In this document: in pieces, positions 52,179-56,929 of the stretch | How the letters are laid out: each line of letters opens with the position of its first letter | Position numbering within the stretch: the first letter of the stretch is position 1 | NCBI GenBank assembly: GCA_963833225.1 | Contig: CAWHXD010000019.1 | Location: forward strand, 544,001 to 608,000 | Direction of reading: 5' to 3' | Length of the DNA stretch: 64,000 bases | Source of the DNA: an uncultured Chloroflexia bacterium | GTDB lineage: Bacteria; Chloroflexota; Limnocylindria; Limnocylindrales; CSP1-4 | Position numbers and translations under genes: made by a program | The notes under the pieces: generated by a model | The model's input: only the letters and a program-made list of their open reading frames with translations | Database searches by the model: none | Told to the model about the DNA's origin: nothing

Positions 52179-53066
52179 GTGAACACGCTGCCGACGCCCG
52201 ACGCCCTCGACCGCCCGCTTGTCGCCGACGGGGCGATGGGCACCATGCTGTTCGCCAATGGATTGCCCATCGGCGAGGCCCCCGAAGCCTGGCTGCTCAC
52301 CCCCGAGGGGGAGGCCGCGGTCGCCAACGTTCATCGTGGACACGTCGGTGGTGGCGCGGAGATCGTGCTGACATCCACGTTCGGCGCCAACTCGCTTCGC
52401 CTTGAGACCTCGGACGTGCCGGGTCGCTCCGTGGAGATCTGCCAAGCGGCGGTCGCCGCCGCTCGCGCCGGCGCGGGCCTGGACACGATCATCGCGGCCT
52501 CCATGGGGCCGACCGGCGGCCTGCTGATGCCGTACGGGCTGCTCGACGAGGGCGCGGTGCGGGCCACCTATGCCGAGCAGGCCGCGGCGTGCGCGGAGGC
52601 CGGCGTCGCCGTGCTCTGGATCGAGACCATGATGGATGTCAACGAAGCCGTTGCGGCCGTGGACGGGGCCCGCGAAGGGGCTCCCGGGCTGCCGGTCATC
52701 GCCACCATGACGTTCACGCCCCAGGGCCGGACGATGTTCGGCAACAAGCCCGAGGCGGTCGCGGCCGCGCTGGCGGAGCATGGCGTCGCGGGCGTCGGCG
52801 CCAACTGCGGGGAGGGGTTCGCACCCGTCGAGATGGTGATGGCGGCGATGCGCGATGCCGCGCCGGGCCTCCACCTGGTCGCCAAGGCCAACGCCGGGCT
52901 CCCCACCGTGGATGGCGACGGGGCCACCCACTACCCGGCGACGCCCGAGGAGGCGGCCGCATACGCAAGGGCGGTCGCTGACCTGGGCGCCACGATCATC
53001 GGCGGGTGCTGCGGGACCACGCCGGCCCACATCGCGGCGATCGCGAAGGCGGCTGGCGCCCGCTGA
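52179..53066 (+). CDS. Homocysteine S-methyltransferase family protein (stand-alone Hcy-binding domain)
   Basis: DGAMGT, TFGAN, IETM, GANC, NAGLP, GGCCGT. Confidence 0.9.
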   Translation: MNTLPTPDALDRPLVADGAMGTMLFANGLPIGEAPEAWLLTPEGEAAVANVHRGHVGGGAEIVLTSTFGANSLRLETSDVPGRSVEICQAAVAAARAGAGLDTIIAASMGPTGGLLMPYGLLDEGAVRATYAEQAAACAEAGVAVLWIETMMDVNEAVAAVDGAREGAPGLPVIATMTFTPQGRTMFGNKPEAVAAALAEHGVAGVGANCGEGFAPVEMVMAAMRDAAPGLHLVAKANAGLPTVDGDGATHYPATPEEAAAYARAVADLGATIIGGCCGTTPAHIAAIAKAAGAR

Positions 53067-53234
53067 GTTCGGCAGCACGTGTAGGACCGTGCTGGCAGAC
53101 CGCGCCGTGACCAAGGACCACGGAAGCAGGCATTGGCCGGCCTTCGTTCCTGGACCGCCGGGCGGGGGTGGCGCAGCGCCGTCGGCTGGCGACGTGGAGC
53201 GAGGCAGCGCGAATCGGAGCATGGAGCGGGACCC

Positions 53235-53474
53235 ATGAGACTGATCACGATCGCGACCCTGCTCGTGCTGGTCGTGGCGGTCGTCCGCTGGGGCTACGCA
53301 CTTCGCGGGACCATTGGGAAGCCGCCCGAGTGGGAGCCGCCTCGCCTCCATGTCTGGCCGTTCAAGTTCAAGCGAGACGGGTACCGCCGCTACCTCGCCC
53401 TCTGGCTCGTGGCATTGCTGCTCATCATCGCTGCCATCCTCGTCGGTGCGTGGACGCCGTTCGACGTCCGATGA
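53235..53474 (+). CDS. Small 2-TM membrane protein
   Basis: GGAG SD; two hydrophobic segments. Confidence 0.5.
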   Translation: MRLITIATLLVLVVAVVRWGYALRGTIGKPPEWEPPRLHVWPFKFKRDGYRRYLALWLVALLLIIAAILVGAWTPFDVR

Positions 53475-53736
53475 GTTCGCCAAGCTTGACTGGTAGGTCT
53501 GAGGTGGTTGCTCGGCAGGTCAGTGGGGGCCCGCGGTTCGATTGAGCAGCGATGACGCTCAGCCCACCGGTGCCCGTGCGCGGCCAGCCCGACCCCAATG
53601 TCGGCGACCGTTTCCTGGGCACTCTCCGTTCATCGTGTCGATCTGCGGCCGACGGCCCGATTTGACCGCCCATCCCTGCACCTCCTGCCGAACCCGAAGC
53701 CCGCTGAGGCGGTACTCGGCACCCGCTGACGGGCGC

Positions 53737-53850
53737 CAAGTCACTAGCGACTGTGGACCGCGACCACCGATCGGAGGTCCGCGCGGGGCCACGCTGAGGT
53801 GGGTGACCACCTCCTCGTGGCGATCGGGCTGGCCAGTCGCTGGTGACTTG
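53737..53850 (+). repeat. 114-bp palindromic element, left copy
   Basis: Ends CAAGTCACTAGCGACTG / CAGTCGCTGGTGACTTG (16/17 complementary); aligns ungapped to the reverse complement of 54863-54976. Confidence 0.85.
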
Positions 53851-53944
53851 TCGAGGGTTGGTGAGCGCCACCTCGGCTGCGCAACCCCGCAAGCCAGCGG
53901 CCCACCAAAGCCCGTGATAAGCGGGGCGGGCTATACCCCCGCGC

Positions 53945-54769
53945 ATGTCCGACCTCGTCGTGCCCCTCGGCAGCCATTCGCTCGCGATCCGCCTCGGTGA
54001 GCTCGTCCGGGACGCGCGGCGGCTCGCCGGCTGGACGCAATCAGAGCTGGCACGCCGGGCTGCCACGACCCAGTCGGCCATCAGCCGGCTCGAGCGCGGT
54101 GTCGCGCAGCCGCTCGACGTGCTCCTCGTCGATCGGGTGCTGGCAGCGCTTGGGTTCCGCGCCAGCCTCGACATCGAAGGTCGTCACCTTGCAGACCGGC
54201 GCCGGCAGCGCGAGCCCGTGCACGCGAGGATGAACGGATTCCTCGCGGCCAACTTGGAGCGGCGCGGGTTTCGGACCGCCCTCGAGGTCCCGGTCGGCGA
54301 CCCGTCACCACGCGGCTGGATCGACCTGCTCGCCTTCCGACCGGTCGACCGGGCGCTGCTCATGGACGAGACGAAGGGCGACCTCCCCGATGTCGGCGCG
54401 TTCCAGCGCAGCCTCGCCTTCTACGAGCGCAACGCCCGCGAGGCTGCGAATCGGCTGGGCTGGAGCGCGACACGGCTCGTGGTCCTGGGCACGATGCTGG
54501 ACAGCGCGACGATCGCCACGCGCCTGGCGGAGAACCGCGAGCTGCTCGGGAGGGCGTTTCCCTCGCCGGTGGACCGCCTGCTCGCGTGGATCGACGACCC
54601 ACAGGCCCCGGCCCCCTTTGCCTGGACGCTGGCGACATGCGATCCGGCGAGTCGTTCGGCGGCATGGCTGCGGCCACCCATGGTGGGGACGCGCCGGCGA
54701 CCCATCGCCTACGCCGACTATGCCGAAGCCGCCGCCCGCCTGCACCGGGCGGGTCGCCGTCGACGCTGA
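53945..54769 (+). CDS. XRE helix-turn-helix protein with C-terminal PD-(D/E)XK nuclease-like domain
   Basis: WTQSELARRAATTQSAISRLERG; EVPV...GWIDLLA...LLMDETK. Confidence 0.8.
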   Translation: MSDLVVPLGSHSLAIRLGELVRDARRLAGWTQSELARRAATTQSAISRLERGVAQPLDVLLVDRVLAALGFRASLDIEGRHLADRRRQREPVHARMNGFLAANLERRGFRTALEVPVGDPSPRGWIDLLAFRPVDRALLMDETKGDLPDVGAFQRSLAFYERNAREAANRLGWSATRLVVLGTMLDSATIATRLAENRELLGRAFPSPVDRLLAWIDDPQAPAPFAWTLATCDPASRSAAWLRPPMVGTRRRPIAYADYAEAAARLHRAGRRRR

Positions 54770-54862
54770 GCACGTGGGACGCTGTGCCGATGGGCCCCCC
54801 TCGACACGGAACACGCAGGACGGTCTCTGCCGACAGGTCCCCCTCGATGCGGAGCACTGCCG

Positions 54863-54976
54863 CAAGTCATCAGTGACTGGCCAGCCCGACCACCACGAGG
54901 AGGTCGCCGCTGACCCAAGCGTGGTTGCGCGCGGAGCTCCGTTCAGTGGTCGTCGACGGCAGCCTGAGGTGACTTG
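54863..54976 (-). repeat. 114-bp palindromic element, right (inverted) copy
   Basis: CAAGTCAT...GTGACTTG ends; 87/114 identical to the left copy by manual count. Confidence 0.85.
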
Positions 54977-54988
54977 ACGCGGCCTGAT

Positions 54989-55097
54989 CGCCACATGGCC
55001 CCGGAGCGCCACATGGCCCCGGGGCGCCACATGGCCCCGGGTCGACCTGGCCCCGGGTCACCACCTGACGCGGCCTGCTCGCCACCTGGCCCCGGGT
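54989..55097. repeat. 18-bp tandem repeat (3 near-perfect units plus degenerate copies)
   Basis: CGCCACATGGCCCCGG(AG/GG/GT) at 54989, 55007 and 55025. Confidence 0.85.
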
Positions 55098-55109
55098 GGC
55101 AACCGGGGG

Positions 55110-56009
55110 CTACCCCCGCGGTCGTGACCTCGCCGCGATCCGCCCGAGCGCGCCCTCCCAGCCGGCGTCGAACGGCTTGCCGGGCTCGTCGAGGTCGATG
55201 ACCACGGGCGCGTGGTCGGACGGGGTGGGCGGACCCTTGCGCGCCTCGCGGTCGATCTCCGCCCACACAACCCGCGACGCCACCGGCGCCGTCGCATACA
55301 GCAGGTCGATGCGCATGCCCTCGTTCTTGTGGAACATTCCGGCCCGGTAGTCCCACCACGAGAAGCGTCCGCCATCCGGCTGGAACGCGCGGTAGGTGTC
55401 CACGAGGCCCCAGGACCGCAGCCGCGCGAGGGCCTCGCGCTCGGGCTCGGAGACGTGGGTGCCGCCGTGGGCCTTCGCCGGGCTCCAGACATCCAGGTCG
55501 GATGGCGTCACGTTGTAGTCGCCCCCGAGCACGAGCGGCGCGGTCGGCGACTGCGTCTCGGCCAGCCAGCGCGAGAGCCGCTCGAACCAGCGCAGCTTGC
55601 CCTCGTAGAACGGCGAGCCCACCACGCGTCCGTTGGGGGCGTACAGCGACGCGACCCGGACCCCGCCGCACACCGCCGACACCATGCGCGCCTCGTCGAA
55701 CGGGTCGAAGTCGTCCTCGCTCACCGCCACGGACGCCCCAGCGGAGGAATCCCGCACCGCCCCGTCGCCGAAGTTGGTGACCACGTCCTCGACCCTCACC
55801 CGGCTCAGGATCGCCACGCCGTTCCAGCGTCCTTCACCGTGGTGGGCCATCTCGTAGCCCAGCATCCGCATCGGCATCTCTGGCGCGTCGGCGTCGGACA
55901 GCTTCGTCTCCTGGATCAGCAGCACGTCCGGCTCGGCGCGCGCGAGCCACTTCTCGACGGCCTCCTGGCGGGCTTTGAGCGAGTTGACGTTCCAGGTCGC
56001 GATGCGCAT
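55110..56009 (-). CDS. xth: Exodeoxyribonuclease III
   Basis: MRIATWNVNS, QETK, NGVAI, YAPNG, GDYN, FSWWDYR, RIDL, PSDHAP. Confidence 0.95.
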   Translation of the reverse strand: MRIATWNVNSLKARQEAVEKWLARAEPDVLLIQETKLSDADAPEMPMRMLGYEMAHHGEGRWNGVAILSRVRVEDVVTNFGDGAVRDSSAGASVAVSEDDFDPFDEARMVSAVCGGVRVASLYAPNGRVVGSPFYEGKLRWFERLSRWLAETQSPTAPLVLGGDYNVTPSDLDVWSPAKAHGGTHVSEPEREALARLRSWGLVDTYRAFQPDGGRFSWWDYRAGMFHKNEGMRIDLLYATAPVASRVVWAEIDREARKGPPTPSDHAPVVIDLDEPGKPFDAGWEGALGRIAARSRPRG

Positions 56010-56049
56010 GAGACCCCTGACTGCGAGGCCCTGATCCTACCCGGCGACC

Positions 56050-56767
56050 CTACCGCTTGGGCGCCTTCACGACGATCGGCTCGTCGACCCTGCTGAACTC
56101 GTAGGTTGCCGTGAACGTCTCGCTGCTGGTCGCGAGCGTAGGGCCGGAGCCGGACAGCTCCATGCGCAGCGGCGTGCCGTCGGCCGCGATCACGAGCGTG
56201 AGCGACTCGATCCGGCCGACCTTCCCCTCCGCCCGCATCGTGAGCGACTGGTACGTGAACGGGCGGCCGCAGGCGAAGGCCAGCCCCTCGGGTGCGTCGG
56301 CGGCCGGCCCGGTGTACTCGAGGTCGTCCAGCCAGCACAGGAACAACCACGGGTTGGTCACCTCATCGAGCAGCCGCTCGTCCGCCGTGCCCGCCCGCCA
56401 CTTGCCGTTGCCGATCTTGACGAACGTCACCGCACCGACATGGCGCAGCTCGAACGGCTTGGTCCCAGGGCTCGTCACCTTCGCCGCGAAGCCGCTGCCG
56501 GCGACATCGAGGGTGATGGTCGCCTTGATGCCGCCGCCCGTGGTCGAGATCACCTCAACGACGTGGAAGGTGAGGTCCGTCGCGGGCGATGAGCGGTCCG
56601 AATGCCCGGAGGGCAAGGTCGGCCTCTGCGGCACCCGGCAGCGGACTGGCCGGCGGCTCCGGCGGCGGGTCCGTGTACGTCGCCGGCTGTGGGTTGCCGC
56701 CTGCGCCGCATCCGGCGAGCAGGAGCGCCGCAGCGAGGATGGGCGCGGCAGCGCGGGACCAGGCCAT
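56050..56767 (-). CDS. Lipoprotein, beta-rich (LppX/LolA-like fold possible); frameshift near 56580
   Basis: Lipobox LLAGC; C-terminus TYEFSRVDEPIVVKAP typical of LppX_LprAFG-like proteins. Confidence 0.55.
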
Positions 56768-56820
56768 CCGGGCCGGCAGTCGTGCGCCTGACTCCCAGGT
56801 CCGCGTGTCGGTGTGGAGGC

Positions 56821-56929
56821 GCTTGGCCTCCTGGATCCGCAGCACGTCCGGCTCGGTGCGGGCCAGCCACCCCTCGACGGCCTCCTGGCGGGCTTTGAGC
56901 GAGTTGACGTTCCAGGTCGCGATGCGCAT
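56821..56929 (-). pseudogene. xth: Duplicated 5' fragment of xth (about 36 codons)
   Basis: 56821-56930 matches 55901-56010 at 102/110 nt; encodes MRIATWNVNSLKARQEAVE. Confidence 0.9.

Follow-up and report, generated by a model that had tools for sequence, protein, structure and literature searches.

The window analysed here is a stretch of 64,000 nucleotides (nt) from an uncultured Chloroflexia bacterium of the Limnocylindrales (positions 544,001 to 608,000 of contig CAWHXD010000019.1, assembly GCA_963833225.1), and positions given below without a contig name refer to it. Our subject is a gene at 53945-54769 encoding a helix-turn-helix (HTH) protein with a second, nuclease-like domain, together with the two inverted repeat arms between which the gene lies (Table 1). 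A repeat search of the window delimited the arms as 118 nt each, 76% complementary, with 1012 nt between them. An earlier note, made from the letters of the window alone, had placed arms of 114 base pairs (bp) and about 76% identity at 53737-53850 and 54863-54976; this 114-nt core was recovered, with 4 nt added. Both arms open with CAAGTCA and close with TGACTTG, and the open reading frame (ORF) begins 94 nt after the left arm and ends 93 nt before the right one, in each respect as the note had described. When the whole focal assembly (G000; 3.89 Mb in 20 contigs, 86% complete) was scanned against itself, it yielded no more than three inverted pairs whose arms are about 1-1.2 kb apart, the focal pair included, so that this pair stands above the background. 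The second pair belongs to an ordinary DDE insertion sequence (C7:15257-16600) with 92-nt terminal inverted repeats, 92% identical, and a 366-amino-acid (aa) transposase of the integrase-core type, named by eye; the third (C20:5847-7115) consists of an 87-nt fragment of a methyltransferase-like gene, duplicated in inverted orientation on either side of a 169-aa ORF.

The left arm forms a long hairpin with a 17-bp terminal stem, much as the earlier note had drawn it. Its fold departs clearly from shuffled sequence (z -4.7 and -5.9 for RNA of the two strands, -5.4 for DNA), and none of 200 shuffles folded equally well. RNA-type covariation within the unit was weak, compensatory changes occurring at 3 of 34 predicted pairs, and the hairpin is neither supported nor refuted by it. 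A scan of 52500-56500 against Rfam (E up to 1) returned only a chance microRNA match, with 21.9 bits against a gathering score of 80. The palindromic sites at the two ends of the left arm begin 206 and 110 nt before the start codon of the gene.

The N-terminal part of the encoded protein matched the Pfam models HTH_3 (33.9 bits, cut-off 23) and HTH_31 (31.1 bits, cut-off 27), which places it in the XRE family. Structurally, the HTH matched HipB and the controller (C) proteins of restriction-modification systems (Z 10.5-10.8, with C.AhdI at 10.7 and C.BclI at 10.5; sequence E 1.8e-9 to 1.4e-8). The C-terminal domain (C-domain) had no sequence-level match in Pfam, NCBIfam, PADLOC or the PDB sequences, only the HTH being recognized; the PADLOC models that matched (capH, HTH_VI, RmrA) all contain an HTH and covered residues 15-74. 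Pfam detected no DDE, tyrosine, serine, HUH or GIY-YIG domain in the protein. A full-length model (predicted local distance difference test, pLDDT, 90.1) showed a low-confidence linker at residues 81-88 followed by an alpha-beta-beta-beta-alpha-beta core as read by DSSP, and the C-domain modelled alone reached a pLDDT of 89.5 and a predicted template-modelling score (pTM) of 0.86. The top ranks of its structural matches were overwhelmingly PD-(D/E)XK nucleases: Foldseek returned the R2 restriction-like endonuclease domain (8gh6_A, E 8.4e-4), NucS/EndoMS, Upx, Hjc (2wiw_A, E 8.4e-3) and XisH, and VIA-align returned XisH (2okf_B, Z 8.9 over 119 residues), Upx (8.8), AF1548 (8.6), NucS (2vld_B, 8.5) and Can2 (8.2).

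The motif E...GWID...DETK, by which the note had recognized a PD-(D/E)XK-like domain fused to the HTH, is present. In an alignment of 47 homologues E114, D127, E142 and K144 are invariant, as are R25, L35, E50, H93, A94, G124, D149 and W173; in 24 aligned C-domains E26, D39 and K56 (corresponding to E114, D127 and K144) were invariant and E54 (E142) was kept in at least 90%. Because the moderate Z scores of 8-9 come together with an invariant E..D..ExK, the modelled C-domain is assigned to the PD-(D/E)XK superfamily, an assignment that gives the fold and not a substrate or function. The fusion proposed from the letters is thus borne out, and the C-domain does model as a nuclease of this kind. 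Modelling also supported a homodimer, with an ipSAE of 0.60 against 0.01 for the best control (pLDDT 86; runs agreeing in at least 97% of contacts); 20 of 30 solved homodimers attained a mark of 0.60, as did 1 of 23 monomers. The modelled interface comprises residues 1-9 and 56-89, as in the dimers of HipB and the C proteins, and since those dimers have been solved, the score may owe something to resemblance to known structures. With 677 clusters at 50% identity (E of at most 1e-30) the family is large, and source names place its members mainly in Limnocylindrales and other Chloroflexota metagenome-assembled genomes; paralogues in G000 are 59% and 47% identical to the focal protein.

The unit formed by each arm also occurs on its own. 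Plain BLAST of the arm against G000 returned only the two arms, and a solo copy surfaced only through the site motif and a profile. The motif AGTC-N6-GACT was observed 15 times in G000 (about 27 expected), 3 of these within the two arms; another two, at C19:815517 and 815614 (spacing 97 bp), reveal a third, solo unit at C19:815513-815630. This unit is about two-thirds identical, judged by eye from the alignment, and has a 199-aa ORF on one side and a convergent gene for an ATP-dependent DNA ligase on the other; C19:187147-187221 holds a partial copy. We then searched 70 genomes of the genus, all metagenome-assembled and, as relatives, non-independent samples, with a sequence-only profile built from seven units. 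Strong matches (E of at most 1e-8) came only from G000, G008, G013, G004, G022 and G030, the best match in every other genome having an E of 4e-4 or weaker. Run on the fetched loci, nhmmer gave 15 solo units at 14 loci in G008 (plus one doubtful), 12 in G013 (11 if two represent one duplicated contig), 2 in G004 and 1 in G022. Copy numbers are lower bounds, because the assemblies of G000, G008 and G013 are only 86%, 72% and 69% complete. The further copies that the earlier note had proposed to look for thus exist, sparsely in G000 and more abundantly in G008 and G013, and comparison strongly supports the view that the genomes in which the unit is strongly present are mainly those with the matching gene.

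What is repeated is the unit of about 115-118 nt alone: the flanks of different solo copies share no similarity, bar one possible duplicated contig pair, which rules out a larger mobile entity. Many solo copies are orthologous between G008 and G013, and the solo and partial copies of G000 are orthologous to copies in G013 and G008. The intergenic sites of G000 that are orthologous to solo units of its relatives are mostly short and lack the unit. Identities suggest the species tree ((G008,G013),G000). Most solo units follow the 3' ends of genes. Of 31 units considered, 22 had a called left neighbour and 19 a called right one; 18 and 15 of these genes, respectively, are directed towards the unit, and the 12 units with both neighbours called comprise 7 convergent, 4 tandem and 1 divergent arrangement; the directions come from a crude gene call based on GC content at third codon positions, and the rows include orthologous pairs that are not independent. 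At one site in G008 two direct unit copies lie 1,005 bp apart (L143:600-717 and 1723-1840), and the same site in G013 (L161) holds a single, apparently chimeric unit, a difference that suggests deletion or duplication by recombination between units.

The association extends to other members of the family. From the genus, 47 family loci were collected, 42 of them with usable flanks. Flanking inverted repeats (alignment z of at least 6) were found at 15 of the 42 and two or more perfect cognate sites at 19, in keeping with the earlier proposal that homologues would be flanked by inverted elements of their own. Further copies of these repeats were found as well: at least 8 of the L101 core in G030, 4-5 of the L099 arm in G018, and copies of the L040 arm in G028 and G031. 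Judged by these alignments, the paralogues are flanked by their own repeat subfamilies.

Across these loci the half-site at the unit ends changed with the recognition helix. A helix of the form Q[S/T]..[S/C/A]R went with AGTC at 7 of 7 loci, QA..SR with ATCC at 5 of 5, and QA..WR with ACTC at 7 of 7; no exception occurred among these 19 loci with at least two perfect sites, the other 23 of the 42 having fewer sites of the three classes. Loci with a further, fourth type of helix, Q[S/T][K/M]IWR, had ACTC-N7-GAGT in 5 of 10 cases. In a FastTree phylogeny, from which three distant loci and two with internal stops were left out, the classes were scattered and sister lineages differed (L089 and L036; L033 and the focal clade; L042 and L035+L093). 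Because the classes are scattered and the switches lie on separate branches, the association does not go back to one inherited event. The control, 22 loci without the gene (74.5 kb), held 2 sites in total, and no locus had two or more of one class. That the end-site sequence tracks two recognition-helix residues across the family is strongly supported by this comparison.

The orthologue in G030, a sister species, has itself changed class. Its helix reads QAAISR, serine 44 being replaced by alanine, and 8 of the 9 solo units fetched from G030 carry ATCC-N6-GGAT at both ends, 95 bp apart. Their inner core (CGACCACCG..GGAGCTCG..CGAGCTCC..GGTGGTCG) is as in the AGTC units of G000, G008 and G013. 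A candidate constant element beside the variable end sites is GGAGCTC, which recurs in both inner arms of most AGTC- and ATCC-type units and of some ACTC-type units (in the focal unit, in the region of 53772-53779 and 53811-53818); GAGCTC is itself a 6-bp palindrome, and other unit subfamilies have CTCGAG at the matching position. Sites of the ATCC class were also considered as elements in G000, where ATCC-N6-GGAT was observed 163 times, base composition predicting about 27 (consensus GATCC.G..C.GGATC). They were ruled out, being scattered in varied contexts with no partners at 88-102 bp; the excess, which by eye appears to lie mostly in coding DNA, would suggest an effect of codon usage.

In 35 AGTC units the half-sites were conserved at 0.9-0.99 and the N6 spacer at 0.4-0.6, and paired end sites lie 94-96 bp apart in all three classes. 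We examined 80 further species-representative loci, 73 of them usable, and found same-site pairs 85-125 bp apart in the 500-bp flanks of 28 loci, on both sides in 8, compared with 0.00 of shuffled flanks; loci rather than pairs are given because nested motif definitions inflate raw counts. The spacings peaked at 85-86, 92-96 and 104-107 bp, and a class at 123-124 bp stems from adjacent 29-bp arrays. The peaks follow one another in steps of one helical turn (about 10.5 bp).

Gene and arms have persisted together. The orthologues in G008, G013 and G030 are 93%, 87% and 75% identical to the focal protein, and the locus is syntenic on both sides in G008 and G013 and on the right side in G030. In G013 (L034, G013:C42) the coding sequence of the orthologue is divided between two frames, which overlap around residues 82-86, in the disordered linker between HTH and nuclease domain; this may be a real split or an assembly error. 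Among G000, G008 and G013 the gene is 86-91% identical and the arms 77-92%, against 20-67%, with many gaps, in adjacent non-coding stretches (50-67% in the DNA flanking the left arm, 20-44% in the spacer from gene to right arm). Conservation extends to the 49 bp in front of the start codon (Table 1). A scan of 53000-55200 for sigma-70 consensus sequences and terminators found no promoter and no terminator; as nothing there matches the sigma-70 consensus, a regulatory role of these 49 bp is only presumed. Among the sequencing runs listed, no RNA run contained the genome, and the DNA runs that did had only small shares of it (0.10 or less).

Left arms of different species resemble each other at 86-92%, compared with 76-81% between left and right arm within one genome. 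Since left arms are closest to left arms, the pair is older than the three species and its arms have not been homogenised. By these comparisons purifying selection acts on both arms and gene, and the gene appears to be vertically inherited and single-copy per subfamily. The earlier note had argued for selection on structure and against a recent duplication; both selection and age stand, the left/right divergence predating the species split, and for selection on the hairpin as such the covariation given above is weak.

Seven neighbouring ORFs were scanned. They encode ornithine carbamoyltransferase, carbamate kinase, homocysteine S-methyltransferase, exodeoxyribonuclease III, a DUF6395 protein and two products without a family; none is a transposase, integrase or DNA methyltransferase, and the absence of the first two had already been remarked upon. 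The homocysteine S-methyltransferase and exodeoxyribonuclease III genes converge on the focal locus. In L073, L086 and L079 the same two genes are only about 50-110 bp apart with nothing between, so that the segment separating them in the window is extra DNA relative to these genomes. Of the 70 genus genomes, 67 contain just one copy of the exodeoxyribonuclease III gene. A family member stands at this spot in 7 of 30 examined loci (focal G000, G013, G008, G030, G036, G005 and G091), and G076 has a C-terminal remnant of the family gene there. Members of two separate clades occupy the same site by the exodeoxyribonuclease III gene, and many family matches fall at contig ends. Tandem arrays adjoin units at orthologous and paralogous loci, including that of G008, and in L039 and L040 they hold cognate sites.

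Table 1. Features of the focal locus, in window coordinates
Feature	Position	Strand	Basis or remark
Intergenic segment bounded by the stop codons of two convergent genes, for homocysteine S-methyltransferase and exodeoxyribonuclease III	53067-55109		Missing in 'empty' relatives
Left unit copy, about 115 nt, palindromic	53733-53850	+	Two 14-bp end sites; 86-92% identical, gapless, in three species
Left-unit end sites, AGTC-N6-GACT	53739-53752 and 53835-53848	+	96 bp start to start
Conserved 49 bp upstream of the start codon, presumed promoter/translation-start region	53896-53944	+	90-96% identity in three genomes
Gene for a 274-aa XRE-HTH / PD-(D/E)XK nuclease-fold protein	53945-54769	+	Pfam HTH, fold model, invariant residues
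HTH, about residues 16-71; recognition helix Q43-E50 (QSAISRLE)	54071-54094 (helix)	+	Pfam, alignment
Nuclease core, about residues 90-245; putative catalytic E114, D127, E142, K144	within 53945-54769	+	Model, alignment
Right unit copy, inverted relative to the left	54863-54980	-	77-86% identical among three species
Right-unit end sites	54865-54878 (perfect); 54961-54974 (AGCC..GACT, one mismatch)	-	Site motif
18-bp tandem repeat, 3.9 copies, consensus CGCCACATGGCCCCGGGG	54989-55057		Adjoins the right unit; membership in the system uncertain

Two further observations concern the edges of the locus. The 666 bp between the methyltransferase gene and the left unit (53067-53732) hold a 113-aa ORF (53133-53474) with no family match; the matching stretch in G008 is about 206 bp long and largely tandem repeats, and in G013 the left unit follows close behind the methyltransferase stop codon. 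On the other side, the first 41 or so codons of the exodeoxyribonuclease III gene (55110-56009) are duplicated, at 80% aa identity, on the reverse strand at 56807-56929; the duplicate lies some 800 bp upstream of the gene, beyond a lipoprotein-like ORF of 194 aa (56050-56634). This looks like an insertion that doubled the 5' end of the gene, and a similar layout of fragment and lipoprotein occurs in L063 (G004).

We consider it probable that the locus represents a cognate nuclease-plus-repeat system, in which a vertically inherited gene for a dimeric XRE-HTH / PD-(D/E)XK protein is bracketed by its own units of about 115 bp, with solo copies of the unit lying between genes. Strongly supported by the comparisons is the core of this reading, that the family of proteins and the family of units belong together as cognate partners and that unit ends and arms are constrained. 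HTH dimers would bind both end sites on duplex DNA, and with these sites whole helical turns apart, two dimers could bridge one unit. Because spacing steps of about 10.5 bp keep the sites on one face of the helix, the complex probably forms on duplex DNA with its ends bridged and not on a single-stranded hairpin. The intact nuclease domain might then cut or nick at or inside the unit, and cutting would create, maintain or copy units in the manner of RAYT and REPIN, perhaps with the help of host repair; alternatively, the units might be genomic landmarks for DNA processing, as in Ssn/NTS. The simplest account of the population-wide end switch in G030 would be that the protein helps to make new units as older ones decay. 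The earlier note had envisaged an enzyme with a cognate hairpin, built on a restriction-endonuclease fold; an enzyme with a cognate dispersed repeat is what we find, whereas the phased end sites favour recognition of duplex DNA over that of a hairpin.

Several observations weigh against this reading. The hairpin, which the earlier note had described for the left arm, is limited to that arm: the right arm folds no better than shuffles (z -1.5 and -0.95 for RNA, -1.4 for DNA). Only about a third to a half of the family loci have flanking units. G000, with an intact gene, has a single full solo copy and one partial copy, and G004 and G022 have one or two units and no close orthologue was found in these two fragmented assemblies. 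No near-identical solo copies were seen at different sites; between copies the divergence is 15-40%, many being orthologues shared by G008 and G013, and recent activity is therefore unsupported. Nor did we find a clean empty site or target-site duplication when the flanks of 30 solo units were compared with G000, two pairwise alignments were made and G013 and G008 were searched with three solo loci; orthologous sites lacking the unit exist, and the intergenic DNA around them is too diverged to fix boundaries. We know of no strand-transfer chemistry carried out by a PD-(D/E)XK domain alone, and the whole case rests on comparison.

By analogy a serious alternative, if an unlikely one, is that the protein is a restriction-like or recombination-control nuclease for which the units are recognition landmarks, resembling SsnA and NTS, the repeats themselves having spread by other means. 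A repeat-nuclease-repeat order with a cognate repeat for each homologue is the Ssn/NTS arrangement as reported (PMC11893778), and the structural neighbours of the C-domain include restriction, repair and junction-resolving nucleases. PADLOC models, however, matched the HTH part only, no methyltransferase or other protective partner lies among the seven ORFs scanned, and the switch of unit ends throughout G030 is simpler to explain if the protein helps to generate new units.

Rather unlikely, in our judgement, is an old autonomous transposon with long terminal inverted repeats, its solo units resembling miniature inverted-repeat transposable elements (MITEs), the HTH-nuclease acting as transposase and the focal copy now fixed and decaying. 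In its favour, the layout is repeat-gene-repeat, a 2-kb segment is missing between the same two genes in L073, L086 and L079, two separate clades of the family occupy one site, and many family matches fall at contig ends. Yet the 24% difference between the arms is older than the split of the three species that share the locus, and purifying selection acts on arms and gene. No genome contains a second gene-bearing element of high identity (the paralogues of G000 being far more distant), and a DDE, tyrosine, serine or HUH domain is lacking. No target duplication was seen either, in intergenic DNA of relatives too diverged to align a clean empty site.

An autoregulated transcription factor is quite unlikely as well. 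The units would then be operators, the solo units a small regulon, and the nuclease fold would serve only for oligomerisation or sensing. The likeness of the HTH to HipB and C proteins, the two sites upstream of the protein's own gene and the conserved 49 bp before the start codon all suit a regulator, and the covariation of helix and site speaks for binding, not for cutting. Against it, all four catalytic residues are invariant in 47 sequences, and units lie downstream of the gene too. Solo units, moreover, lie mostly beyond 3' ends, with convergent neighbours far outnumbering divergent ones, and the entire unit of about 115 bp is conserved and copied, the operators being only part of it. As for a chance or neutral local inverted duplication without function, to which the two copies found in G000 by plain BLAST would point, we give it virtually no credence, as it is already refuted by dispersal and covariation (flanking repeats, solo units, arm conservation, site code, the G030 switch and spacing).

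A bolder form of the cognate nuclease-plus-repeat reading is held here with more doubt than confidence. In it, XRE-HTH / PD-(D/E)XK proteins would be a third independent class of repeat-dedicated enzyme, following the HUH RAYTs and the GIY-YIG Ssn nucleases, which generates and copies units of about 85, 95 or 106 bp through a duplex synaptic complex. HTH dimers would sit on both phased end sites, and the nuclease domains would cut within or beside the unit. The recognition code would be simple and evolvable, position 44 (S/T or A) together with position 47 (S/C or W) selecting AGTC, ATCC or ACTC, and a change of code would lead to replacement of entire repeat populations.

Bacteria commonly carry dispersed extragenic palindromes, but only a few kinds have a known partner enzyme, REP/REPIN having RAYT and NTS having Ssn. 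A third such pairing, on a fold unrelated to either, would, if true, mean that a nuclease gene wrapped in its own repeats has evolved repeatedly, here in Limnocylindrales-type genomes of a poorly studied phylum, the Chloroflexota. It would offer a candidate enzyme type for orphan repeat families and a readable protein-DNA code in a large unnamed protein family whose C-domain is covered by no Pfam model. That unit length is quantised in helical turns is a structural prediction both concrete and falsifiable.

In the open-access literature searched, no published HTH / PD-(D/E)XK gene with cognate extragenic repeats was found. Several known systems share parts of the arrangement. Insertion sequences and their MITEs likewise have a gene between inverted repeats and short non-coding copies elsewhere, but the focal locus is not an ordinary pair of this kind: it has no recognized transposase domain and no multiple gene-bearing copies, its arms are old and diverged, and no target duplications were seen in the strongly diverged intergenic DNA compared. 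ERIC elements are extragenic imperfect palindromes of about 127 bp, and the solo units are similar in size and imperfect palindromy. XisH, NucS/EndoMS and Hjc are the best fold matches of the C-domain, at a sequence identity of only 10-20%. C proteins and Type II restriction endonucleases come close in other respects, the focal HTH matching C.AhdI and C.BclI and being combined with palindromic sites, a predicted dimer and a PD-(D/E)XK domain. C-boxes, too, contain GACT/AGTC. Unlike C-protein restriction-modification systems, the focal locus has no adjacent DNA methyltransferase among its seven scanned ORFs, HTH and nuclease are fused in one chain, and the sites lie in dispersed 115-bp units and not at a single promoter.

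In the Ssn/NTS system, according to the same report (PMC11893778), ssnA lies between two NTS repeats, each homologue has a cognate repeat variant and the repeats are dispersed. The repeats are SRM/NTS hairpins, and SsnA, a GIY-YIG nuclease, cuts near NTS repeats and limits the integration of transforming DNA. The focal system shares the repeat-nuclease-repeat layout, the repeat particular to each homologue and the dispersal. It differs in fold, PD-(D/E)XK in place of GIY-YIG, and in its probable substrate, since Ssn works as a monomer of one domain on single-stranded DNA close to hairpins of 20-50 nt, whereas the focal protein has a separate HTH predicted to bind duplex palindromes at both ends of a unit of about 115 bp.

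REPIN-RAYT offers a close organisational parallel. According to the source (bioRxiv 10.1101/2021.07.10.451892), the repeats are extragenic palindromes of about 100 bp, the RAYT gene occurs in single copy with repeats of its own population on its flanks, and several pairs of RAYT and repeat can coexist in a genome; all organisational features compared agree with the focal system. The focal gene, too, is flanked by members of a dispersed extragenic palindromic population, keeps its place among related species and has only distant paralogues. The differences lie in the enzyme and its sites. RAYT is an HUH/Y1 (IS200-like) transposase, and the focal enzyme joins an XRE-HTH to a PD-(D/E)XK domain; REPs are GTAG- or CGTC-tagged, and the focal unit ends in CAAGTC...GACTTG with 14-bp palindromic sites. 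Copy numbers in the focal system are low, from 1 to about 15. Finally, RAYT works on single-stranded hairpins, whereas the helical phasing of the focal sites points to duplex DNA.

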